A stretch of 64,000 bases of DNA. Source: a virus. Below, piece by piece: positions 9,046-47,280 of the stretch. Every line of letters begins with the position of its first letter. Positions within the stretch are counted from its first letter, which is position 1. The notes beneath the pieces were generated by a model, which worked only from the letters and a program-made list of their open reading frames with translations, was not told where the DNA came from and did not search any database. Location of the stretch: positions 1 to 64,000 of IMG/VR virus record IMGVR_UViG_3300047472_000231; one strand, 5' to 3'. A program made the translations under genes and the position numbers.

Positions 9046-9576
9046 ATGACCACCGCCATCGCCTCCCGCACGTTCACCGACGCCGACACGGCAGCCGCCG
9101 TACAGATCGCCGCAGCCGAGCCCCGGTTCTGGAACGGCCCGTCCGGCGAGCCGGCGACCGGAGAGCAGATCGCCCGCCACGTCGATGCCGTCCTGGCGAT
9201 CCTGTCCGAGCGCGGCTGGGCCCGCGTTCACGGCGACCCGGACCCGGAGCCGCCGGGTGTCGACGAGTCGATGTCGTCGAAGGGCCTGCTCCTCGGTTTC
9301 CTGCGCTGGGTGCTCGACATGGCCCGCGACTCCGGCCCCCTCACCCTGGCGATCGCCATGCTGCGGGTGCAGGACGCGGTAGGCGACCAGGACACCTACT
9401 CGGCGGCCGGCCGCGTCATGGACGCCCTGCTCCGGGCCCGCACCGGCGCCCTGTACGTCAGCCACACCGCGTGGGCGGGGAAGCAAGGCCGCACCTTCGA
9501 CGAGGTGCGCGACCTGCTGGAGACCGCCGCCGTATTCGCCCGCACCCACGGGCCGGCGGCGACGGCCGCCGCCTGA
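9046..9576 (+). CDS. DUF6197-like protein
   Basis: ILSERGW...AWAGKQGRTFDEVRDLLETAA C-terminal signature. Confidence 0.6.
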   Translation: MTTAIASRTFTDADTAAAVQIAAAEPRFWNGPSGEPATGEQIARHVDAVLAILSERGWARVHGDPDPEPPGVDESMSSKGLLLGFLRWVLDMARDSGPLTLAIAMLRVQDAVGDQDTYSAAGRVMDALLRARTGALYVSHTAWAGKQGRTFDEVRDLLETAAVFARTHGPAATAAA

Positions 9577-14825: not shown

Positions 14826-14981
14826 TGCTCAAGAGGTGCTCAACACTGCTCAACCGCAGGTCAGAGCCGCTCAATCACCTGCTCAAGCACGTGCTCAGCG
14901 AGATCGTGAGCAGGGCCTGAGCGGCACCTTGAGCGGCTGTGACCTGCAACGGAGCACCCCTGAGCAGTCGTTGAGCACCTC
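14826..14981. repeat. clt-like locus: phased TGCTCAA repeats followed by inverted TGAGCA repeats
   Basis: (T)GCTCA(A) at 14826, 14837, 14847, 14868, 14880, 14892; TGAGCR or GGAGCA at 14907, 14918, 14930, 14951, 14961, 14972; starts ~10 bp after the traB stop. Confidence 0.8.
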
Positions 14982-15024
14982 GCAAACCATCACAAACCGA
15001 TCACCTGTCCGAGGAGCCCCGATC

Positions 15025-15801
15025 ATGCCCGCGAAGCGTCAGCCGGCCCGCCGGACCACCCCGGCGAAGCGCCGCAAGCCGTCCGCCCGCAACCACCCCG
15101 CCCGCCGCGTCAAGATCCCCCGCAAGGGCCCGCTGCACCACCAAATCGGCGCCCGCATGGTCCTGTTCGCCGTCTCCCACCTCGACACCCACGGCGACAC
15201 CGTCCGCTCCCGCAAAGACGCCGCCATCCTCCGCGCCACCCACAAGGGCTGCACCACCTGCCAGGGCAACGGGCAGATCTTCACCAAGGGCAAAGACGGC
15301 TCCTTCACCGGCTCCAAGCCCTGCCCAGCCAAACCCACCAAGGAGCGCGTCTCTCGGTGGGAGGTGTACAAGGCCAGCCGCTTCGGCGCCGACAAGAACA
15401 CCGGTCTCGTCGGCTGGGCCTGCCCCTGCGGCAAGAAGGAGAAGCCCCGCTACCGCGACGCGAAGGAAGCCACCAAGGCCCTGCGCACCCACGAACGGCA
15501 GAAGCATGGCGGCAAGAGCGTCGGAGGCGCCTGGTACGCGCAGGCCACTGAGGGCGCCAAGCAGGCTGCAGACCCGAAGCCCGAGCCGATGCCGTCAAAG
15601 GTCGTCCCCAACTCCGGCATGACCGACGAGCAGTGGGTCGGCCAGAACAAGGGCATGCCCGTCGGTAAGGCCATCGCCAAGGGCAAGTGCTGGAAGTGCT
15701 CCGGCGAAGGCAAGCTCCACGGGACCTTCGGCAACGAGCAGATCCTTACCGTCTGCCCGGAATGCAGGGGCAGCGGCAAGCCGACGAAGGTCGCCGCCTG
15801 A
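15025..15801 (+). CDS. Basic protein with DnaJ-type CxxCxGxG zinc fingers
   Basis: GAGGAG RBS; CTTCQGNG, CWKCSGEG, CPECRGSG. Confidence 0.75.
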   Translation: MPAKRQPARRTTPAKRRKPSARNHPARRVKIPRKGPLHHQIGARMVLFAVSHLDTHGDTVRSRKDAAILRATHKGCTTCQGNGQIFTKGKDGSFTGSKPCPAKPTKERVSRWEVYKASRFGADKNTGLVGWACPCGKKEKPRYRDAKEATKALRTHERQKHGGKSVGGAWYAQATEGAKQAADPKPEPMPSKVVPNSGMTDEQWVGQNKGMPVGKAIAKGKCWKCSGEGKLHGTFGNEQILTVCPECRGSGKPTKVAA

Positions 15802-16307
15802 TGATCGCGCTCACCACGGCCAATACAGCCGCCGCCCCGGTCGAACTCGACCTGGACGCGCGGCTCGCCATGGTGGGCGCGGTCATGGATGAACGCTGCA
15901 ACCTTGCCGTCCTCGCCGTCGACGTGAACAGCGCGCACATCGTCACACCCGAACTCTCTCAGGTCACGGGCCCGTTGCCCCTCGTGCCCACCATGGCACC
16001 CAACCCGTACTCCACGCCGATCGCCGCCACCCTCCATCGGGCTCGCCTCCAGCTCGACGCCGACGGCTGGTGCACCGGGCAGCTGCGCGACGAGCAAGGC
16101 GCCGCATGCCTGATCGGCGTCATCCGCAGCGAAGCCAGCAGTCGCAGCACGGCAGATGATGCGTGCGTCCTGCTGCTGGAGGCGATCCGTAGGGACTTCC
16201 CCACCGCCGAAACCGTGCCCAGCTGGAACGACAACCAGCGCGACCCGCGCATCCCCGCCCGCTACCTCGAGCGGGCCGCCGAACTCGCCCACAACCGCAA
16301 CCTCTAA
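15801..16307 (+). CDS. DUF6197-like protein
   Basis: GWCTGQL...ACLIGVIR...VPSWND. Confidence 0.65.
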   Translation: MIALTTANTAAAPVELDLDARLAMVGAVMDERCNLAVLAVDVNSAHIVTPELSQVTGPLPLVPTMAPNPYSTPIAATLHRARLQLDADGWCTGQLRDEQGAACLIGVIRSEASSRSTADDACVLLLEAIRRDFPTAETVPSWNDNQRDPRIPARYLERAAELAHNRNL

Positions 16308-17046: not shown

Positions 17047-17241
17047 TTACAGCGAGGCCCCGCTCCCGGGTGTCGGGGGCGGGGCCTTCGTTGTGCGGGC
17101 GGGGACGGCGCGGGCCATCCACCCGTTGCTGATCATGTCGGTGGGCGGCATCTTCTCCCGCAGCCCGAGCGTCAGCAGCAGCTGCAACCCGGCCGCCGTC
17201 TCCTGCTCGTCGTCACCCTGCACCGTGAACCGAAGCGCCAT
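17047..17241 (-). CDS. Small hypothetical protein
   Basis: ATG ORF downstream of the HTH gene. Confidence 0.45.
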   Translation of the reverse strand: MALRFTVQGDDEQETAAGLQLLLTLGLREKMPPTDMISNGWMARAVPARTTKAPPPTPGSGASL

Positions 17242-17297: not shown

Positions 17298-17573
17298 TCA
17301 GGCGTCGGGTGTCTCGGCTCGCTTGGCTTCGACCTCGCGGCCGACGGTGGGTTCCCGCTTGCGCTCGGCTCCGACTTTGCGGGCGATGCGACGGAAGAAC
17401 TCGTCGGACAGGCCGGTGAGTTTGGCGAGTTCGGCGGGGGTGGATCCCGCGAGCAGGTCAGCCTCGGCGCGCGTGCGGACTTCCTCCAGCTCGGCCTTGG
17501 CGGCTTCGTGGTGCCGCTTGTGGCGGGCATAGATCCGCTGGTTCTCGTCGTCGGGCGTGTGATCGGTGGCCAT
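17298..17573 (-). CDS. Small HTH repressor
   Basis: AGSTPAELAKLTGLSDEFFRRIAR HTH; divergent from a promoter carrying palindromic operators. Confidence 0.75.
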   Translation of the reverse strand: MATDHTPDDENQRIYARHKRHHEAAKAELEEVRTRAEADLLAGSTPAELAKLTGLSDEFFRRIARKVGAERKREPTVGREVEAKRAETPDA

Positions 17574-17597
17574 GGGCTCATGCTCCCACAACGCGTT

Positions 17598-17691
17598 GGC
17601 CAACGGGAAGGCCACTCGGGTTGGCGGTCCTAAAGAATCATTGAGGCCAACATGGTGGCCTCTTGCGTGGCCAACAGTTGGCCTCTAGAGT
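17598..17691 (+). promoter_or_regulatory. Promoter TTGCGT-17-TAGAGT with three GGCCAAC...GGCC operators
   Basis: Operators at 17598-17613, 17645-17660 and 17669-17683; the third lies in the -35/-10 spacer. Confidence 0.75.
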
Positions 17692-17697
17692 GGAGCT

Positions 17698-18005
17698 ATC
17701 GCCAAGCAAGACGGCGAAACAACTCCACAGAGAGCGAAGCAGAACCGGGGTAGGGGCGCCGAAAGGCGTACCGGGAATCGACCCGTAAACCCACACTCAG
17801 TGGCTAAGCCCCGGGCGAGCGCGATGATAGAGGAACCCTGCCGCTGTTGGACTGAGGCAGCACTCTGGCCGAGCCGGACACCGCAAGGTGGCCCGTGGGG
17901 CATCTGGATTACAGACGGATGCAAGCGCCTAGGTATGGGTCGTCCCGACATACGGGGACAGCACCGCTCCTATCGCGTGATGAAGGTTGCTTCGCTCTCT
18001 GTGGA
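17698..18005 (+). ncRNA. Putative large structured non-coding RNA, family unknown
   Basis: Perfect 18-bp closing stem 17724-17741/17988-18005; GNRA-capped hairpins (GCGCC-GAAA-GGCGT, CACC-GCAA-GGTG); directly after a promoter; no credible ORF. Confidence 0.7.
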
Positions 18006-18034
18006 CCCAGAGGTCCGATCGGGGGGTGGCGAGA

Positions 18035-18520
18035 GTGGAGCAGCAGGACCAGGAGTACGTCACCTGCCCGAAGTGCAACGGCAAGCAGGGCTTCGATACG
18101 TACCGCCACGTCCCCCACAAGCACGTTGGTGGCCTGTGCTTCGAGTGCGACGGCGACGGTGTCATCCCCGTCGCCAACGCCGCCGCCTACCTCCGCCGCC
18201 AGCAGGCCGCCAAGGACGCCCGCCGTACCCGAGAGCAGGCCCGCGCCGACGAGCGCCAGGCGCAGGAGGACGCAGCCCACGACGCCGCCTTCGACCGCTA
18301 CGGCGAGGAGTACCGGCTGGTGTACGCGCTGTCCCGCTACGACCATCCCGCCACCCTGGCCGCCGTATTCGACCTGAACGCCTACCGGGCAAACGACGCA
18401 GCCGCCATGCGCCGCGTCCACGACCGCCTCCCGTACATGGTCGAGGAAGCCGGACTGGACGGCCTCGGCCTGGAAGAGATCGAAGCACTCGCCGCCGACA
18501 GCGAGAACCGCACCAACTGA
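18035..18520 (+). CDS. Zinc-finger protein (CPKCNG...CFECDGDG) with coiled coil
   Basis: GTG at 18035; codon bias resumes after the ncRNA. Confidence 0.7.
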   Translation: MEQQDQEYVTCPKCNGKQGFDTYRHVPHKHVGGLCFECDGDGVIPVANAAAYLRRQQAAKDARRTREQARADERQAQEDAAHDAAFDRYGEEYRLVYALSRYDHPATLAAVFDLNAYRANDAAAMRRVHDRLPYMVEEAGLDGLGLEEIEALAADSENRTN

Positions 18521-18585
18521 CCCGCCCCGCCCGGCCTTTCGGGGCTGGGCTTCACCACCGAACCACCGCACCAAGGGGGACCCGA

Positions 18586-18984
18586 ATGCTCGCCACCGCC
18601 AAGATCCGTCGCCGCACCCAGGCCGCCGCCCGCACCGCCCCCAAAGCACTCCGCTACCGGGCCATCAGCGGCAACATCGCGGTCCTCGTCGACGCTGGCA
18701 CCCTCGTCCGCACCGGCGACATCCTGGCCCGGCTCGGCGCATCCGACCTCAAGGACGGCTACCAGTCCTGGTACGGCCGCCACGTCAAGAAGGCCTACAT
18801 CGCCGCCAACGAGCAGCCCCCCGTCCAGGTCTGGGCGCAGCACCGAACCACCGGCAAGTGGATCCACGTCGCCGTCTACAGCCCCTACGACATCGCCCTC
18901 TACGTCGGACTCGTCACCTACAAGCGGACCGCCCACCTTGCCCAGCCCGCCTTCTTCCAGGCTGCCTACACGGAGGCCGCCTAG
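18586..18984 (+). CDS. Basic hypothetical protein
   Basis: AAGGGGG RBS, ATG at 18586. Confidence 0.7.
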   Translation: MLATAKIRRRTQAAARTAPKALRYRAISGNIAVLVDAGTLVRTGDILARLGASDLKDGYQSWYGRHVKKAYIAANEQPPVQVWAQHRTTGKWIHVAVYSPYDIALYVGLVTYKRTAHLAQPAFFQAAYTEAA

Positions 18985-19029
18985 ACCAACTTCACGGCCC
19001 GGTTCGCCCCTCGCTTTCAGGAGTCCGCC

Positions 19030-20120: not shown

Positions 20121-20171
20121 CCCGCACCGTGCAGGGCCCGCCTCCAGTCTGGGGCGGGCCCTGTGGCGCGC

Positions 20172-20405
20172 TCACGGCGTTGTCGCTCTCGCCGCCTGGC
20201 GCCGCTGCCACCACCGCCAGCCTGCCCGCGGCGCCTCCCAATACACGGCCCGCAGGATCCAGTAGCCCGCGTACAGCATCCAGAGCATCAGCTTGAACAT
20301 GCCGACGATCGCCGCAATCCCCAGCCCGAAGAAGCCGGACGCGGCACGCCCAGGCGAGGCCGACACCCTGAGCGGGCCGATCCCGCCCGACAGTCGAATC
20401 CCCAT
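20172..20405 (-). CDS. Small membrane protein (moron-like)
   Basis: GGGGG RBS; long hydrophobic/aromatic segment. Confidence 0.6.
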   Translation of the reverse strand: MGIRLSGGIGPLRVSASPGRAASGFFGLGIAAIVGMFKLMLWMLYAGYWILRAVYWEAPRAGWRWWQRRQAARATTP

Positions 20406-20730
20406 CGCAATCCCCCCAACAAGCGCACGCACCCCCGCGCGCGGTCCGCGGATGCTACCGCCGACGGCCGCGCGCCTGACGGGTCTTCGCCGCTTTCCGC
20501 CCCATAAGGGATCGCTGCGGCCACGTCCGGCCCGCGTTGCTGATCCTCGCCGCCTTGGACTCGCTCGCACCCTTGCGGCGCAGTGCGCGGTACACCGCGA
20601 AGCGGCTTCGGTACACGAAGCCGGCGCGTCCGCCTCGATCCGAGACCATCTCTACTCCTTCCGTCGCCTTCAATGCTGCCCCCGCGACAGGCGTTGCGGT
20701 AGCGGAGTAGCGACTAATGTGCGCCGATGT

Positions 20731-20745
20731 CCTACGATTCGAAGG
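20731..20745 (+). promoter_or_regulatory. Late-gene palindromic site CCTACGATTCGAAGG
   Basis: Same motif recurs before the portal and lysis genes; contains a TACGAT -10. Confidence 0.6.
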
Positions 20746-20793
20746 TGAAGGTGATGTAATTTTGAAGAATCGACGGGACGAGGAGGGTGGGGG

Positions 20794-21393: not shown

Positions 21394-21518
21394 CTCTCAT
21401 GCAAACTCGCCCAACTCCCGCTCTGAGCTGGGACAATGGAGTCACACCTAAATACGGAAGACCCCGGCGGATGCTGGAAACACCCCCGGGGCATGGCCGA
21501 TCTGCGAAGGAGATCGAC

Positions 21519-22340
21519 ATGACGGAGCCTACCTGCGCAGTCAACGGGTGCGACAGGCCGTCGCGCACGCGTGGCTGGTGCAATGCCCACTACCTGAAGT
21601 GGTATCGAACTGGCGACCCGGAATACCAACGACCTGCTCGCGTAAAACCTGCGTGTTCAGTGGACGGCTGTTTGCGTCCGGCGCACAGTCGGGGCTGGTG
21701 CAAGACGCACTACTTGCGATGGTGGTCAAAGAGCGACCTCGGCAAGGCGGCCATCCGGGCGTACAACAACGTACGAGCAGACTGCTCGTTCGACGGCTGC
21801 AACAACACGTCCAGTGCGGTCGGGTTGTGTGGTGGGCACTGGAGGCAGCAGGCGAAGGGTCAGGCGCTACGACCGCTCAAGAGGAAGACCGATCCGCAGG
21901 CTCGGGACGACGCCGGCCGGAAATTGTGCGGCACCTGCGACGGGTGGCTCCCTGTCAGTCGCTTCACCCGGAGCATCAGCCGATCGGACGGCCTGGCGGC
22001 GCGCTGTACCAAGTGCGAACGCAGTCAGGCGCTGAAGCGGAAGTTCGGGATCACTCTTGAACAGTACGAGGAGCTGCTTGAGGCGCAGGCTGGTGGCTGC
22101 GCTGTATGCGGAAAGACCCAGCAGGAGAACCGCCGCCGACTTGCAGTCGATCACGACCACTCCTGCTGCCCCGGGCAGATCACTTGCGGCAGGTGCATCC
22201 GCGGCCTGCTGTGCAGCAGCTGCAACCTTCATTTCGGTGCGATAGGGGACAGTCTCACTCACATCGAGGCGATGGCGGCCTATCTCCGCTCCAAGACGAG
22301 CCTGGAGGGCGCCTGCCCAGTTGATGCGGATACGCAGTGA
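21519..22340 (+). CDS. Endonuclease VII-family homing endonuclease with N-terminal Zn repeats
   Basis: YEELLEAQAGGCAVCG...LAVDHDH...IRGLLCSSCN. Confidence 0.85.
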   Translation: MTEPTCAVNGCDRPSRTRGWCNAHYLKWYRTGDPEYQRPARVKPACSVDGCLRPAHSRGWCKTHYLRWWSKSDLGKAAIRAYNNVRADCSFDGCNNTSSAVGLCGGHWRQQAKGQALRPLKRKTDPQARDDAGRKLCGTCDGWLPVSRFTRSISRSDGLAARCTKCERSQALKRKFGITLEQYEELLEAQAGGCAVCGKTQQENRRRLAVDHDHSCCPGQITCGRCIRGLLCSSCNLHFGAIGDSLTHIEAMAAYLRSKTSLEGACPVDADTQ

Positions 22341-23914
22341 CCGAGTACTTGCATGACCCGCGCACAGGTGAGCCGTACAACTCGGCGACCTTCGATCTGG
22401 ACGACTACCTCGCGGGGATCGACGCGCGCCTCCTTGCATCGAGCGAGGGCCGGAAGGTGCTCACCCGTCTTGATCCACTCCTGTTCGGCCTCCTCTACCT
22501 GCCCCACCACATGAAGGGGAAGCAGACCGGCGAACAGATCACCCTCGCCGACTGCCACCTGGACTGGGCCCGCCGGGCTCTCCAGTGGGTCCGCCCCGTC
22601 ACGGAACCGCGGAGCGCCCGAGACGTGTTCATCAGTCCGCGCGAGTCCGCGAAGAGCACATGGTGGTTCTTGATCATTCCGATGTGGGCTGCCGCTCATG
22701 GACTCGTGCGCTTTGTGGCTGCGTTTTCAGATAGCGCCAGCCAGAGCGAGACGCACCTGGCCACGTTCAAAGCGGAGCTCGACGGCAATCGGCTGCTACG
22801 CGAGGACTTCCCTAGCCTCACGAAGCCGGCCACCCGCCCCCGCGGCTCCGTTGTTGCCGACCGCCAGTCGCAGATCCAGATGGCGTCCGGGTTCACCTTC
22901 GCTGCGCGCGGTATCGACTCCGGCAACCTTGGCCTCAAGGTCGGTCGCGAGCGCCCGGATGCCTTGATCTGCGACGACATTGAGAGCGGGGAGGCCAATT
23001 ACTCGATTCACCAGGCGAAGAAGCGACTCTCCACGCTGCAGAACGTGATCCTTCCCCTGTCGGAGTTCGCACGGGTGGTCGTCGTGGGCACCACCACCAT
23101 GGCGGGAGGGCTGATTCATCAGTGCGTCAAGAGCGTCACGACCACGGAGGAGCCCGCCGAGTGGATTAAGGAAGAGAAGTTCCGCGTCCACTACTACGAG
23201 CCGATCGTCAACACCGAGGCTGGCGAACGATCGATCTGGCCCGCCAAGTGGCCCATGAGCTACATGGTGCAGGTCCGTGCGACGCGCAGCTTCAAGCTCA
23301 ACTTCCTGAACCAGCCGTCCAGCGCGAACTCCGATTACTGGACCGAGGGCGACTTCACCTACGGCCGCTTCCCGGTGGCCCGTACCTACCTGTCCGTCGA
23401 TGGCGCTGTCACAACCAAGACGAAGTCGGACTACACGGGACTGGCGGTTGTCGGCTGCGCCCCCGCGCGACCGGCGCGCGAGGGTAGCCGGGCCGTACCA
23501 GCGCGATGCCTGGTCGAGCACGCCGAGGCGGTAAAGCTGAAGGGTAGGGCGCTTCGGGATCGAGTCCTGCAGCTGCTGGATTCGTATCCGGAGATTGGCG
23601 CGATCCTCGTTGAGGCGAATCAGGGTGGGGACCTTTGGCATGAGGTGTTCCATGACCTGCCGGTGCGGGTGGTCACCTTCTCGAACTCTGAAGCCAAAGA
23701 GGTCCGCGCGGCCCGCGTATTGAACCTCTACCAGCTGTTGCCCGCGCGTGTGGTCCATGCCGAGGCCCTGCCTGCCCTGGAAGAGCAGATGTGCGCGTTC
23801 CCGAATGGGCTCAACGATGACCTCGTCGACGCCGTGGGGAACCCGGTGCTGCGATTCCTGCGGCCCCCGCCCAGGAAGGCGCCTCCGTCGGCGGAGAGCG
23901 CCAGCTACGTCTAG
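22337..23914 (+). CDS. terL: Terminase large subunit
   Basis: Walker A SPRESAKST, Walker B ALICDD, RNase H-like LSVDGA...DDLVDA. Confidence 0.88.
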   Translation: MTEYLHDPRTGEPYNSATFDLDDYLAGIDARLLASSEGRKVLTRLDPLLFGLLYLPHHMKGKQTGEQITLADCHLDWARRALQWVRPVTEPRSARDVFISPRESAKSTWWFLIIPMWAAAHGLVRFVAAFSDSASQSETHLATFKAELDGNRLLREDFPSLTKPATRPRGSVVADRQSQIQMASGFTFAARGIDSGNLGLKVGRERPDALICDDIESGEANYSIHQAKKRLSTLQNVILPLSEFARVVVVGTTTMAGGLIHQCVKSVTTTEEPAEWIKEEKFRVHYYEPIVNTEAGERSIWPAKWPMSYMVQVRATRSFKLNFLNQPSSANSDYWTEGDFTYGRFPVARTYLSVDGAVTTKTKSDYTGLAVVGCAPARPAREGSRAVPARCLVEHAEAVKLKGRALRDRVLQLLDSYPEIGAILVEANQGGDLWHEVFHDLPVRVVTFSNSEAKEVRAARVLNLYQLLPARVVHAEALPALEEQMCAFPNGLNDDLVDAVGNPVLRFLRPPPRKAPPSAESASYV

Positions 23915-43668: not shown

Positions 43669-44543
43669 GCCGCCGCCCCCTGGTTGGGGATCTTCTCGGC
43701 GAGCGCCCGGTATCTGTCGAGGAGATCCGTCGCGTTCAGGAAGGGATGTTGAGGAAAAAAGGACCAATGGGACACAACGGCGTTGCCGCGGAGGATGTTG
43801 GGCCGTCCGGTCGCGAGCGGCTGGTGCACGGTGTGGAATGACTCCTCCTCGTCGGGGACGAGGATCCCGGGGCCGTGGGGCAGGTCGGCGTACATGCTGC
43901 CCAGGCTTGCGAAACAGCTGACGGAGAACTGGGTTCCAGGCTGGAGCGGGAAGTCCTGGTACATGTAGAGCGACTCGACGGTCCCCGCCTCTATGTGGTC
44001 GAGGAGCAGCTCGTGCAGCTTCACGGCGAAGGGTCCGTTGGCCCAGCCGGTGGGGTCCATGCAGTAGGCGTTGACGGCGCCCCACTCCATGGGAACCTTC
44101 CCGCACAGCTGCAGGAAGTGGGAGCAGATCGCGTTGTTGATGATGATCGGGAACACGGCGGTCGGCGCGGGCATCTCGATACGGGCGCGTACCAGGTTCT
44201 CGACGGCCGCCTCGTGCAGGTAGACGACATCGTCATCGAGCCGTAGGTAGATCGCGTCGGGGTCGGTCATCTCCCGGTAGGCGTAACCGGTGTTGCGCTG
44301 CTTCTGCCCGTGAATGAGCACCCCCTCCGGCCTGTGCTTGAGAACAAACCAGGGGTACTGCTCCGCCAGCTCGTGCGCGTAGGCGACGTCGTCTTCCTGG
44401 CCGGTCGGGTCGGTGTTCATGAACGCCCAGACCTCGTCGACGAGGCCGCGGGCGACGTCCCGCTTCAGGTACTTGATCAAGATGCTGTACGTTCTGCGGC
44501 GCCCGTAGGGTGTCCAGGCGATCACGCGGCGGCCGTCAATCAT
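43665..44543 (-). CDS. Putative GT-A fold glycosyltransferase
   Basis: TPYGRRR...YLRLDDDVVY (DxD); operon with a GT-B gene and an epimerase. Confidence 0.7.
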   Translation of the reverse strand: MIDGRRVIAWTPYGRRRTYSILIKYLKRDVARGLVDEVWAFMNTDPTGQEDDVAYAHELAEQYPWFVLKHRPEGVLIHGQKQRNTGYAYREMTDPDAIYLRLDDDVVYLHEAAVENLVRARIEMPAPTAVFPIIINNAICSHFLQLCGKVPMEWGAVNAYCMDPTGWANGPFAVKLHELLLDHIEAGTVESLYMYQDFPLQPGTQFSVSCFASLGSMYADLPHGPGILVPDEEESFHTVHQPLATGRPNILRGNAVVSHWSFFPQHPFLNATDLLDRYRALAEKIPNQGAAA

Positions 44544-45556
44544 GCTGCTGTCCTCTCTGCTGCGGGCGCAGAGAGCGCCGCTTCCCACTGTCGGTTGATG
44601 GCCTGGAGGATCGATCCGGAGGCCTCTGCGCGGGCGGCCATGCCCATCTGCTGCCGCAGCCCGGGATCGTCCACGAGGCGCTTCAGGTAGCGGCCCCACT
44701 CGTGCTCGCGCCGCACCAGGAACCCGTTCTCCCCGTGCCGGATCACCCGGCGGTACGGCTCTATGTCCGACGCAATCAACGGGATGCCGAGGATCGAGGA
44801 CTCCAGCCACTTCGTCGGATACTTCGCCCGGTTGAACGGGATGTCCCGGTACGGCGCCACCCAGACGTCCCATTCGCCGACCGCCTGCATGTAGTGCTCG
44901 TGCCGCTCCACCCACCCCAACGCCCCGATCTGCCAGCCGCGGAGCCCGAGCGCCATGGCGTGCTCGGGAGTGATACCGACGATGCGGACCTGCACGCCGC
45001 CGGGCCGCCGGTACTGCGAGATCCGGTTCAGCGCCCGGACCGCCTCCGGGAGTTCGGCGACCGTGGACGACGTGCCGGCCCAGCCAACCGACAGCGGCCG
45101 GCCCTTCGCCTGATAGTCGCGGGGCGTCCCCAGGTACTGCGCCGGCAGCCCATTGGGGACGACTCGGACGTCGGCCGCATAGTCGCGGAGGACGGCGGCC
45201 AGCGGCTCTGAGCAGCAGGTGACGAGGTCGGCGAGCTGCATGTTGTCGGCGAGGCGTTGCAGCATCGCCTTGTCCCAGGTGCGGACGGCGGCCTGGTTGA
45301 CGGGGTCGAGGTGGAAGTAGTCGTCGTCGAGATCGAGGACGAGCCGCTTCCCCTGCTCTTTCAGCCGCTGCCACATCATGGTCGGCTCTGGTTTGGCGAC
45401 GCGGCAGCCAACGACCGTGTCCAGGGCGGGCCAGTCCTTCGGGAGCCGCATCCCGCCAGATACGGCGTGCCCGAGCCATTGCAGGCTCATGCCGGGCAGG
45501 ATCGCCCTATACAGGGCGGAACCTGCCTCGTCGGCCGACCAGAAGTGAACGCGCAC
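44540..45556 (-). CDS. GT-B (GT4-like) glycosyltransferase
   Basis: VLDLDDDYF; VGWAGTSS; FNRAKYPTKWLE...IPLIASD...HGENGFL. Confidence 0.85.
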   Translation of the reverse strand: MRVHFWSADEAGSALYRAILPGMSLQWLGHAVSGGMRLPKDWPALDTVVGCRVAKPEPTMMWQRLKEQGKRLVLDLDDDYFHLDPVNQAAVRTWDKAMLQRLADNMQLADLVTCCSEPLAAVLRDYAADVRVVPNGLPAQYLGTPRDYQAKGRPLSVGWAGTSSTVAELPEAVRALNRISQYRRPGGVQVRIVGITPEHAMALGLRGWQIGALGWVERHEHYMQAVGEWDVWVAPYRDIPFNRAKYPTKWLESSILGIPLIASDIEPYRRVIRHGENGFLVRREHEWGRYLKRLVDDPGLRQQMGMAARAEASGSILQAINRQWEAALSAPAAERTAA

Positions 45557-45557
45557 G

Positions 45558-45884
45558 TCAGGCCACACCGCTTCGCAGCTGAGCCTGAGCCTTCCGGATC
45601 TCGTCCTTGACCTGCTCGCGGAACTTCTCGAAGTCGCCTTCGATCTGGACGTGAAGCGGGTAGCTGTCGGGACCGGTCGGCACCTCGTTGGCGGGGATCT
45701 CAACTTCCTCGTCGAAGACGAGGATGGTTCGAGCTCCGAGCTCGTCCCTCAAGTGGGGTGGATCGCGCAGGAAGTCCAGCATGCTTTCTGGATTCTGGAC
45801 CTTGTCGATGACCAGGACGAACGGCGTGACCATGTCGTCGCCGTGGTGCTCGGTCGGAAGTTCGAGGATCTGCAGACGCGCCAT
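45558..45884 (-). CDS. Hypothetical protein
   Basis: MARLQILELP...PFVLVID; coupled to its neighbours. Confidence 0.65.
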   Translation of the reverse strand: MARLQILELPTEHHGDDMVTPFVLVIDKVQNPESMLDFLRDPPHLRDELGARTILVFDEEVEIPANEVPTGPDSYPLHVQIEGDFEKFREQVKDEIRKAQAQLRSGVA

Positions 45885-46855
45885 CAGACCGTCACCGCCT
45901 GCGAATCGACCAGATACCCGGGGAGCCACTGTTCGGCGTAGTAGCGGACGGTGTGGTGGATGCCTTCGTCGAGGGGCACGAAGTCGGCGGCCGTCATCCC
46001 GATCTGCTGGAGCGTCGTCGTGTCGGAGGAGACGACGGCGTTGGGGACTTCGCCGGGCCGCATCGGCAGGTGCTTGATGGCGACGGGCTCGCGACCCGTG
46101 TACCGGGTGGCTTCTTCGGCGACGAGGCGGGCGATGTCGTTGACGGTGAGGGACTCCAGCGGCCCGACCTCGACCGGCTTCTCGGTGGGCCCGTGGGCGG
46201 CGGTGTGCTCGAGCGCGGTGACGAACGCGCGGGCGACGTCGGCGACGTACACGCAGTCGGAGATCTGGGTGCCGTCTCCGTACACCTCGATTGGGGCGCC
46301 GGTCAGGGCGCGGCACGACAGCGAAGGCATGATCTTCCGAACCTTGCTGGTGCCGTAGGGGGCGGCGATCGACTGCCCCGGCCCGTAGGCGTTGACGGGG
46401 CGGACGATGGTGATCCGGCCGCCGTCCCGGTAGAGGTTGTACATGCGGGCCAGGTCCTCGGCCGCGCTCTTGGTGATCGTGTAGCAGCCGGTTCCCTGGA
46501 GCCGCATGAAGTGGTTGCCCACCCCTGCATAGGCGACCGGTAGCCCGTACTGCGTGGCGGCCTCGAAGACGTTCAGCGAGCCGAGGATGTTCGTCTCCGC
46601 CGACGGGCGCGGGTTGCTGATCGTCTCCTGCGTGCCGAGGACGGCCGCGAGGTGGATGATCCCCTCGCAGTGCGCGGCGGCCTCCGTCACGGCGGTGGCG
46701 TCGCGGACGTCGCCGAGGAAGAACTCCTCGCCGGGCGCGAGCTGCTGGCGGCGGTCCTGGTGGTCCATGACGAGCACCGTGTGGCCGCGCGCGAGGAGTT
46801 CCTTGCGGATCCATGAAGCGATGAAGCCGGAGCCCCCAGTGACGAGTGTCTTCAT
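45884..46855 (-). CDS. NAD-dependent nucleotide-sugar epimerase/dehydratase
   Basis: LVTGGSGFIA, IHLAA, YTITK (YxxxK), NAYGPGQ, GDGTQISD. Confidence 0.92.
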   Translation of the reverse strand: MKTLVTGGSGFIASWIRKELLARGHTVLVMDHQDRRQQLAPGEEFFLGDVRDATAVTEAAAHCEGIIHLAAVLGTQETISNPRPSAETNILGSLNVFEAATQYGLPVAYAGVGNHFMRLQGTGCYTITKSAAEDLARMYNLYRDGGRITIVRPVNAYGPGQSIAAPYGTSKVRKIMPSLSCRALTGAPIEVYGDGTQISDCVYVADVARAFVTALEHTAAHGPTEKPVEVGPLESLTVNDIARLVAEEATRYTGREPVAIKHLPMRPGEVPNAVVSSDTTTLQQIGMTAADFVPLDEGIHHTVRYYAEQWLPGYLVDSQAVTV

Positions 46856-47280
46856 GCCTGCTGCTCCTTGCTGGTGATGTCGCTGTCGAGGGCTTCGATG
46901 AGTTCGCCGGTCGGGCAGGGCCAGAGCACCCCGCAGCTGGGACAGACGTTGTCGGACTCCATCCGCCCGCCGCCCGCCGTGTCGAAGCTGCCGTGACCTT
47001 CGTGGTGCAGGTCGCGGAACTGTTGGACGTAGCGCTGGAGGCGGACGATCTCGCGGACGTAGTCGAGGTTCGTGTGGGTGGTGGCGAGGTGCTCGCAAAC
47101 GGCGGCCTCAACGCGTCCGACCCGCTCGGTCATGGCGTGTTCGACTAGGGCCGCGATCCCGGCTTGGATGCCGTCTTCGATGCGGACGGTGGGCCAGGTG
47201 GTGGGGAGTTGTCCGTCGGGTTCGTCGTGGTGCCAGCCGCAGTCGGGCATGGGGCACAGGTAACGGGTGCCGCTGGTCAC
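46852..47280 (-). CDS. Cys-rich hypothetical protein
   Basis: CPMPDC...CPSC...WPCPT; coupled. Confidence 0.6.
   Translation of the reverse strand: MTSGTRYLCPMPDCGWHHDEPDGQLPTTWPTVRIEDGIQAGIAALVEHAMTERVGRVEAAVCEHLATTHTNLDYVREIVRLQRYVQQFRDLHHEGHGSFDTAGGGRMESDNVCPSCGVLWPCPTGELIEALDSDITSKEQQA

Follow-up and report, generated by a model that had tools for sequence, protein, structure and literature searches.

A conserved folded RNA of a candidate new family between a promoter and the first rightward gene of a Streptomyces prophage

We analysed a stretch of 64,000 nucleotides (nt), which comprises positions 1 to 64,000 of the IMG/VR virus record IMGVR_UViG_3300047472_000231 (hereafter the window), and within it an intergenic region for which a structured non-coding RNA had been proposed from the sequence (hereafter the original prediction). 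The parent record is 76.6 kb long with 68% G+C, and the element carrying the RNA is a Streptomyces prophage. The direction of genes switches near 17.6 kb: leftward genes at 17047-17241 and 17298-17573 are followed by a rightward series from 18035, which about 4 kb later leads to the large terminase gene (22337-23914; PHROG 38, E = 4e-52) and then to structural genes. The 460-nt gap between the two series holds the promoter, the operator palindromes and the folded-RNA region described in the original prediction. The plus strand at 17699-18009 encodes a genuine folded RNA of about 285 nt that constitutes a candidate new RNA family. The coordinates of all features are collected in Table 1.

The candidate promoter consists of the hexamers TTGCGT (17663-17668) and TAGAGT (17686-17691), separated by the 17-nt spacer GGCCAACAGTTGGCCTC. 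The spacer includes the perfect palindrome GGCCAAC-A-GTTGGCC, and two more palindromes with the same half-site are located upstream of it. The half-sites are clustered in 17595-17683 only, with three of the ten GGCCAAC and two of the three GTTGGCC occurrences in the 64 kb. Both hexamers and the palindrome are kept in three related viral contigs, L002-L004 (TTGCAT and TAGAGT in L002), in agreement with the originally predicted promoter with an operator in its spacer. A generic sigma-70 scan, whose consensus is that of E. coli and not of Streptomyces, did not flag this promoter (7 of 12 matches). TAGAGT agrees with the Streptomyces -10 consensus TAGAPuT. Judging from the operator pattern, the promoter is plausibly gated by a repressor. 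The folded element, counted from its closing helix P1 at 17724, begins about 30 nt past the promoter. The region also contains an exact 10-nt direct repeat, AGAGTGGAGC, at 17687-17696 and 18032-18041; one copy covers the promoter's -10 box and start region, and the other covers the GTG codon of the first rightward gene. By chance, about 0.2 repeats of this kind would occur in 600 nt, and neither copy coincides with a homology breakpoint.

The divergent leftward gene encodes a protein of 91 amino acids (aa) that is 67-89% identical to its counterparts in L002-L004 and 36% identical to that in the Streptomyces locus L006. It has no family match in Pfam, PHROG or NCBIfam. In an AlphaFold2 model (pLDDT 74), a long helix is followed by a pair of helices, 46-53 and 57-67, resembling a helix-turn-helix (HTH). 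Foldseek matches of this model are weak and non-significant, nearly all of them being DNA-binding HTH domains. The divergent small HTH gene of the original prediction is thus present and HTH-like in the model, but its HTH is not matched by any family.

The element at 17724-18005 is enclosed by a perfect inverted repeat of 18 base pairs (bp), or 19 bp counting one G.U pair. The arms, 17724-17741 and 17988-18005, are 100% complementary and are separated by 246 nt; by our own arithmetic, about 3e-6 such 18-nt inverted repeats are expected by chance in 600 nt. This is the perfect stem around a non-coding region that had been seen before. The plus strand folds at -135.6 kcal/mol (z = -3.97), and the z-score of the minus strand is -2.39.

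The fold is retained in evolution. The window was aligned with three diverged homologues from Streptomyces, L005, L006 and L014, for which identities of 72-83% are given (alignment A4), and RNAalifold predicted 81 pairs in 13 helices from this alignment. Of the 322 base-pair cells, 93.5% can pair; with the 3' partners shifted by 1-3 columns the share falls to 36-44%. Two-sided changes affect twenty pairs, against one to four after shifting, and none of 500 shuffles reached the observed values of pairing and covariation. The compensatory changes are spread over ten internal helices. Thus the covariation expected for a conserved structure is found among the homologues, with 20 two-sided pairs in four sequences. 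The alignment contains 42 G.U cells, and four G.U pairs are invariant. Since G.U cells would be A.C mismatches on the opposite strand, the plus strand is the folded one, which agrees with the direction of the promoter and of the downstream gene. A covariance model restricted to the 5' domain of 139 nt (R1) detects all four homologues, with scores of 141-170 bits.

Within the closing helix P1 there are two domains, a four-way junction (P2) and a larger one of several helices (P3-P7), which bears the variable insert and the other GNRA hairpin (P6). The predicted hairpin P0 precedes P1, and its sequence differs among the copies: UCGCC/GGCGA, CGCCG/CGGCG and GUCGGG-GCAA-CCCGGC. Compensatory changes were observed in P2, P2a and P2c. 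The conserved single strands are AAGCGCC, CCGCUCCUA and GAYGAAGG. Insertions and deletions in the variable region are not multiples of three, and therefore this region is non-coding. N-CCA directly follows P1 in all three types of flank described below.

Most of the hairpins in the original prediction correspond to helices of the alignment fold. The GAAA hairpin (P2a), the GCAA hairpin (P6) and the GCATCTG/CGGATGC stem (P7) are present and have covariation support. The GTCCC/GGGAC stem (17942-17959) also exists, but it lies in the variable region and is specific to this window. There is a hairpin at the position of CTGCC/GGCAG, but its covarying register is GCTGTT/GGCAGC (P4). CGCGAT and ATCGCG do form a helix with covariation support (P3), but it is nested and does not create a pseudoknot. 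Only the long-range pairing of CGACCCGTA with TATGGGTCG has to be abandoned: this 9-bp pseudoknot is not conserved in the homologues, the substitution T17936A in a widespread variant breaks it, and CGACCC is better explained by the local hairpin GGG-AAUCGA-CCC. Other motifs, namely a GGAACC/GGUU tertiary pairing, the 11-nt tetraloop receptor, hammerhead, box C/D and K-turn motifs, were each observed in at most one aligned sequence and are not conserved.

Table 1. Features of the promoter region, the folded RNA and the adjacent genes (positions in the window; ORF, open reading frame; GC3, G+C content at third codon positions)
Feature	Position	Strand	Basis or remarks
91-aa HTH-like gene, candidate operator-binding regulator	17298..17573	-	ORF with GC3 0.85
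Cluster of GGCCAAC/GTTGGCC operator-like palindromes	17595..17683 (17595-17604, 17643-17662, 17669-17683)	.	Sequence reading; spacer palindrome kept in L002-L004
Candidate promoter TTGCGT-17 nt-TAGAGT	17663..17691	+	Read from sequence; conserved in L002-L004; predicted start
P0, 5-bp hairpin at predicted transcript 5' end	17699..17717	+	Predicted in all four homologues
Linker AACAAC between P0 and P1	17718-17723	+	Sequence
P1, 5' arm	17724..17742	+	Perfect 18-nt inverted repeat plus G.U; 3 two-sided pair changes across homologues
P2 domain, 70-nt four-way junction with 7-bp stem	17745..17814	+	Helices 2-5: 92-100% of cells paired
P2a, GAAA/GAGA loop	17753-17772	+	P2 domain; compensatory changes
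P2b	17773-17784	+	P2 domain
P2c	17791-17803	+	P2 domain; compensatory changes
P3, 5' strand 17819-17825, partner 17971-17977	17819..17834 region	+	Helices 6-7; CGCGAT/ATCGCG of the original prediction, nested
P3a, 5' strand 17831-17834, partner 17967-17970		+	Helices 6-7
P4 hairpin	17843-17861	+	P4-P6 together, helices 8-9: 4 and 1 compensatory pairs
P5 hairpin CUGGCC-GAG-CCGG	17864-17878	+	See P4
P6 GNRA hairpin	17879-17890	+	CACC-GCAA-GGUG here; CAGC-GAGA/GAAA-GCUG in L005 and L014
Variable region, length differing among homologues	17891..17966	+	Includes P7, conserved AAGCGCC and window-specific hairpin 17942-17959
P7	17900-17922	+	Helix 10, 4 compensatory pairs
Conserved junction GAYGAAGGU	17978-17986	+	Directly 5' of P1 3' arm
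P1, 3' arm	17987..18005	+	Inverted repeat and alignment
Small hairpin GGACC-CAGA-GGUCC overlapping P1 end	18003..18016	+	Sequence reading
Shine-Dalgarno box GGGGGGTGG (18021-18029) and 161-aa CxxCxGxG zinc-finger gene, GTG at 18035	18021..18520	+	ORF reading

No match to known RNA families was found. At the gathering cut-off, none of the 4227 models of Rfam 15 (including riboswitches, ribozymes, introns, RNase P, 6S, Y RNA, raiA, ROOL, GOLLD, HEARO and c4) matched anywhere in the window, and at E<=10 the region 17500-18200 yielded only four chance hits of 14-18 bits. ARAGORN found no tRNA or tmRNA in the window. The view that this is a structured RNA of no recognised family therefore stands, all these searches being blank.

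Comparison of related loci demonstrates that the RNA is an exchangeable unit. The contigs L002-L004, which were found via the 91-aa protein, agree with the window in this gene, in the operators and in the promoter, as far as window position 17705. About 45 nt after the shared stretch each of them has a different small ORF, and neither the RNA nor the zinc-finger gene is present. Since the closest phage relatives lack it, the RNA is an accessory cassette in the first-gene slot, not a core part of the promoter's leader. This early slot is hypervariable, and slots of this sort are frequently occupied by genes of host takeover or counter-defence. The first-gene ORFs behind the same promoter are L002:1990-2345(-), L003:2010-2340(-) and L004:2030-2345(-). 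In L014 a more diverged copy of the RNA precedes an unrelated 90-aa ORF, and this locus shares no protein with the window. L014 was identified by BLAST over a sample of 401 genomes of the genus Streptomyces, in which only G001 and G032 had matches. The RNA is single-copy, occurring at one place in the virus record (G000), in G001 and in G002.

The same RNA was observed in metagenomes and metatranscriptomes. A word look-up of window positions 17600-18100 in public sequencing runs found it in at least 24 runs from at least 18 studies; those listed include metagenomes from soil, sediment, groundwater and animal gut as well as three RNA libraries, and, apart from the probable source run and two runs with a small share, they contain about 23-41% of the words. 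Each of four runs (X2, X4, X6, X11) yielded one short contig over just the RNA, with about 98% identity and the same five or six differences in all four. One of these, C17759T, converts a C-G pair of P2a to U.G, as in L006 and L014, and the other shared changes fall in the P7 loop. T17936A, found in two of the four runs, falls in that part of the variable region which is specific to the window. Leftward from 17718 and rightward from 18004 the variant no longer resembles the window; the same RNA is thus embedded in other surroundings, and the breakpoints lie where P1 has its base. The 5' flank contains a P0 hairpin of the L005 type, and in the 3' flank a Shine-Dalgarno box occurs about 22 nt downstream of the RNA. 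In all three types of flank the RNA ends 20-30 nt before the Shine-Dalgarno box and 30-45 nt before the start codon. The RNA is a portable module, exchanged between phages as a self-contained cassette.

The genomic copies are so far confined to Streptomyces prophage-like loci. A distant blastn search found no match in the INPHARED phages or PLSDB plasmids, pattern scans of viral contigs produced one chance match only, in a low-GC coding region (L009), and a pattern scan of metagenome contigs produced 104 stretches, all assigned to chance by nhmmer. Viral contigs searched with the zinc-finger protein alone gave nothing, and with its alignment only L181, which has no RNA. A second search of the genus drew the same 401-genome sample and gave noise only. 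Nothing new was found by pattern search and covariance model in a 401-genome sample of the family, or in a 401-genome sample of the class.

The zinc-finger protein encoded downstream of the RNA has a weak, sub-cut-off similarity to Anti-TRAP and DnaJ zinc fingers, and 13 homologues were found in Streptomyces. Four genomic loci and one viral locus of this gene were viewed for the RNA; the contigs of P0001, P0002, P0004, P0005, P0008-P0010, P0012 and P0013 are not among them. L005 and L006 have an RNA 72-83% identical to that of the window immediately upstream of the zinc-finger gene, L007 and L181 have the gene without the RNA, and in L008 only about the last 30 nt of the RNA remain before the gene. 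An ORF encoding a 586-aa PcfJ-like protein (L008:880-2640) is situated right upstream of this remnant, which suggests that the rest of the RNA was lost through an insertion or rearrangement. Co-transcription of the RNA with the zinc-finger gene, as originally proposed, is compatible with their position on the same strand and directly next to each other, but the link is not obligatory, as seen from L014, the metagenomic variant, L007 and L181. Four of the homologues (P0009, P0010, P0012, P0013) have an additional conserved domain of about 120 aa at the N-terminus. The long two-domain form in L181 (1136-1959) follows immediately after another palindromic operator, GGTGGCTTGCCACC / GGTGGCAAGCCACC, and no RNA is present there. 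The window contains a second gene with DnaJ-type CxxCxGxG motifs, at 14836-15801; like 18035-18520, it has sub-threshold Pfam matches to DnaJ_CXXCXGXG and Anti-TRAP.

The reading that we favour, with a probability of roughly 0.4, is that of a co-transcribed early leader RNA excised at the closing helix P1 into a stable RNA. When the repressor leaves the GGCCAAC palindromes, transcription would begin at about 17698, and the RNA would fold co-transcriptionally. The long perfect P1 duplex could then serve as a processing stalk that is cleaved by RNase III or another nuclease specific for double strands; alternatively, the RNA may be trimmed at a tRNA-like helix-N-CCA end. Either way a stable RNA of about 260-285 nt would be released, and the downstream mRNA would be left to be translated separately. 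Early in the lytic phase, the freed RNA might then act in trans to take over the host or to counter its defences. Both the leader-trailer stalks of pre-rRNA and the lambda N-leader hairpin are substrates of RNase III, and the c4 RNA of phage P1 and the CI RNA of phage P4 are cut from early leaders by RNase P. If an RNase P route is counted as well, the chances of a processed leader RNA become about even.

Several observations do not favour such processing. Contigs from the RNA libraries start at 17734 / 17740 and end at 17987 / 18004+, and thus have no transcript end in common. Contigs in two RNA libraries do cover the element, but such libraries can hold DNA too. The constant distance of 30-45 nt to the ORF fits a cis role equally well, as an RNA acting in trans need not keep it. 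The analysis revealed no target, no partner protein and no complementary site, and a boxA-type signal as known from the rRNA stalks was not found. Finally, there are only four genomic homologues and one metagenomic variant, too few to define the variable half of the fold well.

An almost equally likely reading is that the RNA acts in cis, as a riboswitch-like leader or as an operator that binds a protein or RNA, its fold gating the translation or stability of the next ORF. The pyrimidine-rich 3' arm of P1 would then be a potential anti-Shine-Dalgarno sequence, normally occupied by the 5' arm. The spacing to the Shine-Dalgarno box and start codon in three independent flank types is in line with this, as are the lack of a terminator of the RNA's own, a conserved aptamer-like fold in a 5' untranslated region, and a size and GNRA-rich architecture like those of large aptamers. 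For the window, a duplex of the 3' arm with the start region GAGAGUGGAG is predicted at -21.9 kcal/mol, which ranks within the top 0.8% of 9138 window segments of equal length (p = 0.008). In the other contexts, however, such a duplex falls short of significance (p = 0.07 in L006, 0.12 in the metagenomic variant and 0.36 in L014). Further, the perfect 19-bp P1 is far stabler than the alternatives and forms before the start region is transcribed, unlike a switching P1, and the downstream genes are mutually unrelated and thus suggest no common regulated function or ligand. An anti-Shine-Dalgarno switch is not favoured, as the pairing is significant in the window only. It is unlikely that the RNA is tRNA-like and processed by RNase P; P1 would then form an extended helix of the acceptor type, preceded by U at -1 and with N-CCA on the 3' side. 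It would mature by the tRNA-processing enzymes, as do the c4 and CI RNAs, and might engage factors recognising CCA, with P2 as a cloverleaf-like decoy. In favour of this, P1 runs into N-CCA in all three types of flank (window, GGA-C-CCA; variant, GG-U-CCA; L014, GG-C-CCA), every copy has a U just before its first C-G pair, and the 70-nt four-way junction P2 is closed by a stem of 7 bp. On the other hand, the arm sizes are unlike tRNA, ARAGORN found neither tRNA nor tmRNA, no tRNA-like family of Rfam matched, and the three flanks may share ancestry across these few bases. Moreover, the small hairpin after P1 overlaps the CCA: it is GGACC..GGUCC here and GGUCC-AGCAA-GGACC in the variant, so that the same CC bases pair in two flank types with A and U exchanged, and the CCA would be buried.

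Two further explanations have lower probabilities. The RNA could be catalytic, a new self-cleaving ribozyme or an intron-like element leaving the leader by itself, for which its complex multi-junction fold, two GNRA loops, highly conserved junction strands (GAUAGAGGAACC and GAYGAAGG) and sharp module boundaries could be cited. This is improbable, as no ribozyme or intron model of Rfam matched at E<=10, no gene is interrupted (the N-terminal domain of the longer zinc-finger homologues is not encoded upstream), 19-bp paired termini are unlike those of group I or group II introns, and no joined (spliced) form was present in the four sequencing runs aligned to the window. A group I or group II intron or a split gene was accordingly rejected, there being no intron match, no split gene and no spliced joints in the contigs of the four runs. 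Still less probable is an element acting at the DNA level, such as a miniature inverted-repeat transposable element (MITE) with 18-bp terminal repeats, a single-strand replication origin or a recombination site. It would account for the perfect terminal repeats, for presence and absence among relatives and for the 98% variant in other flanks. However, there is one copy per genome, no target duplication was found (AACAAC borders one side and CCCAGA the other), ten internal helices show compensatory changes as well as the ends, the 42 G.U cells are strand-specific, and the orientation relative to the promoter and the downstream ORF is constant. Thus the idea that the inverted repeats are MITE ends, against which the original prediction had cautioned, fails.

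With the processed leader RNA in mind, known systems can be compared. The mycobacteriophages L5, D29 and StarStuff produce abundant stable Pleft RNAs of unknown function (PMC5712189). As here, a repressor-controlled early lytic promoter of an actinobacteriophage is followed by several hundred non-coding bases before the first early genes. However, the likeness is in position only: the Pleft RNAs have transcripts seen by RNA sequencing and Northern blots with no conserved fold reported, whereas here the fold is the observed part; the RNA here is an optional cassette absent from the closest relatives, and no sequence relationship is expected. The stalks of rRNA operons and the lambda N-leader hairpin resemble P1 in that a long duplex behind a promoter joins the ends and could mark the RNA for excision. 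Unlike them, this RNA has no boxA, boxB or boxC, P1 is perfect whereas rRNA stalks are interrupted, and cleavage is putative. The Streptomyces rrn leader and spacer share with the RNA a match of about 10 nt only, AACUC[C/A]ACAG, which is within chance expectation. Mimicry of the rRNA leader and boxA was rejected, GUUCCUUGAGAACU / GUUGUUUGAGAACU of the Streptomyces 16S leader and 16S-23S spacer (L183) being without counterpart.

The c4 antisense RNA of phages P1 and P7 (RF01695) and the CI RNA of phage P4 are, similarly, small RNAs excised from an early or immunity leader upstream of companion genes, although excision is putative here. They are about 77-79 nt long and antisense to defined sites, whereas this RNA is about 285 nt, with no complementary target found and no Rfam match. 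The ornate RNAs (raiA motif, ROOL, GOLLD, HEARO) share with it multi-junction folds, GNRA loops, a frequent association with phages or prophages and discovery by covariation, but none of their models matches, and this RNA is smaller than ROOL and GOLLD and is located in a 5' leader and not stand-alone. Finally, the msr-msd RNA of retrons is a structured RNA of about 200-300 nt whose ends are paired via the inverted repeats a1/a2, as the ends are here by 18 perfect bp. A retron was rejected, as there is no RVT_1 match in the whole 76.6-kb record and no reverse transcriptase beside the RNA in L005, L006 and L014. The genes neighbouring the RNA are small ORFs without families.

A wider proposal, which we regard as doubtful, is that the RNA is the founding member of a new class in actinobacteriophages, an autonomous, horizontally exchanged RNA gene cassette that is cut from early leaders and acts on a host machine. 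For instance, it would be a decoy for a tRNA- or RNA-targeting defence or processing enzyme, or a catalyst. If true, this would explain why 285 nt are kept at 98% in differing contexts across many soils. The filling of the slot with different small genes in related phages is a pattern typical of host-takeover and counter-defence loci. Structured RNAs this large and complex that have no family are rare, and earlier ones (riboswitches, ribozymes, ROOL, GOLLD, raiA) opened new biology. Since one sequence variant is detectable in at least 18 independent studies, the RNA seems environmentally common though scarce in genome collections; Streptomyces DNA carried in reagents is, however, one possible source of this wide occurrence. 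Its fold backed by compensatory evolution, its sharp module boundaries and a position that would be expressed first on prophage induction are useful traits, and they make it a tractable system for the question raised by the mycobacteriophage Pleft RNAs, that is, the role of abundant early leader RNAs in temperate actinophages.

Some features of the surrounding region may be mentioned. Two DUF6197 genes are present, at 9046-9576 and 15687-16307. Between the zinc-finger and terminase genes there are three gaps of 0.5-0.9 kb each (18521-19029, 20121-20793 and 21394-22336) without a convincing high-GC3 ORF. Genes for a glycosyltransferase and an NAD-dependent epimerase/dehydratase lie within 44540-47098 on the minus strand, and beyond about 42 kb the record probably passes from the prophage into host or cargo genes of sugar modification.

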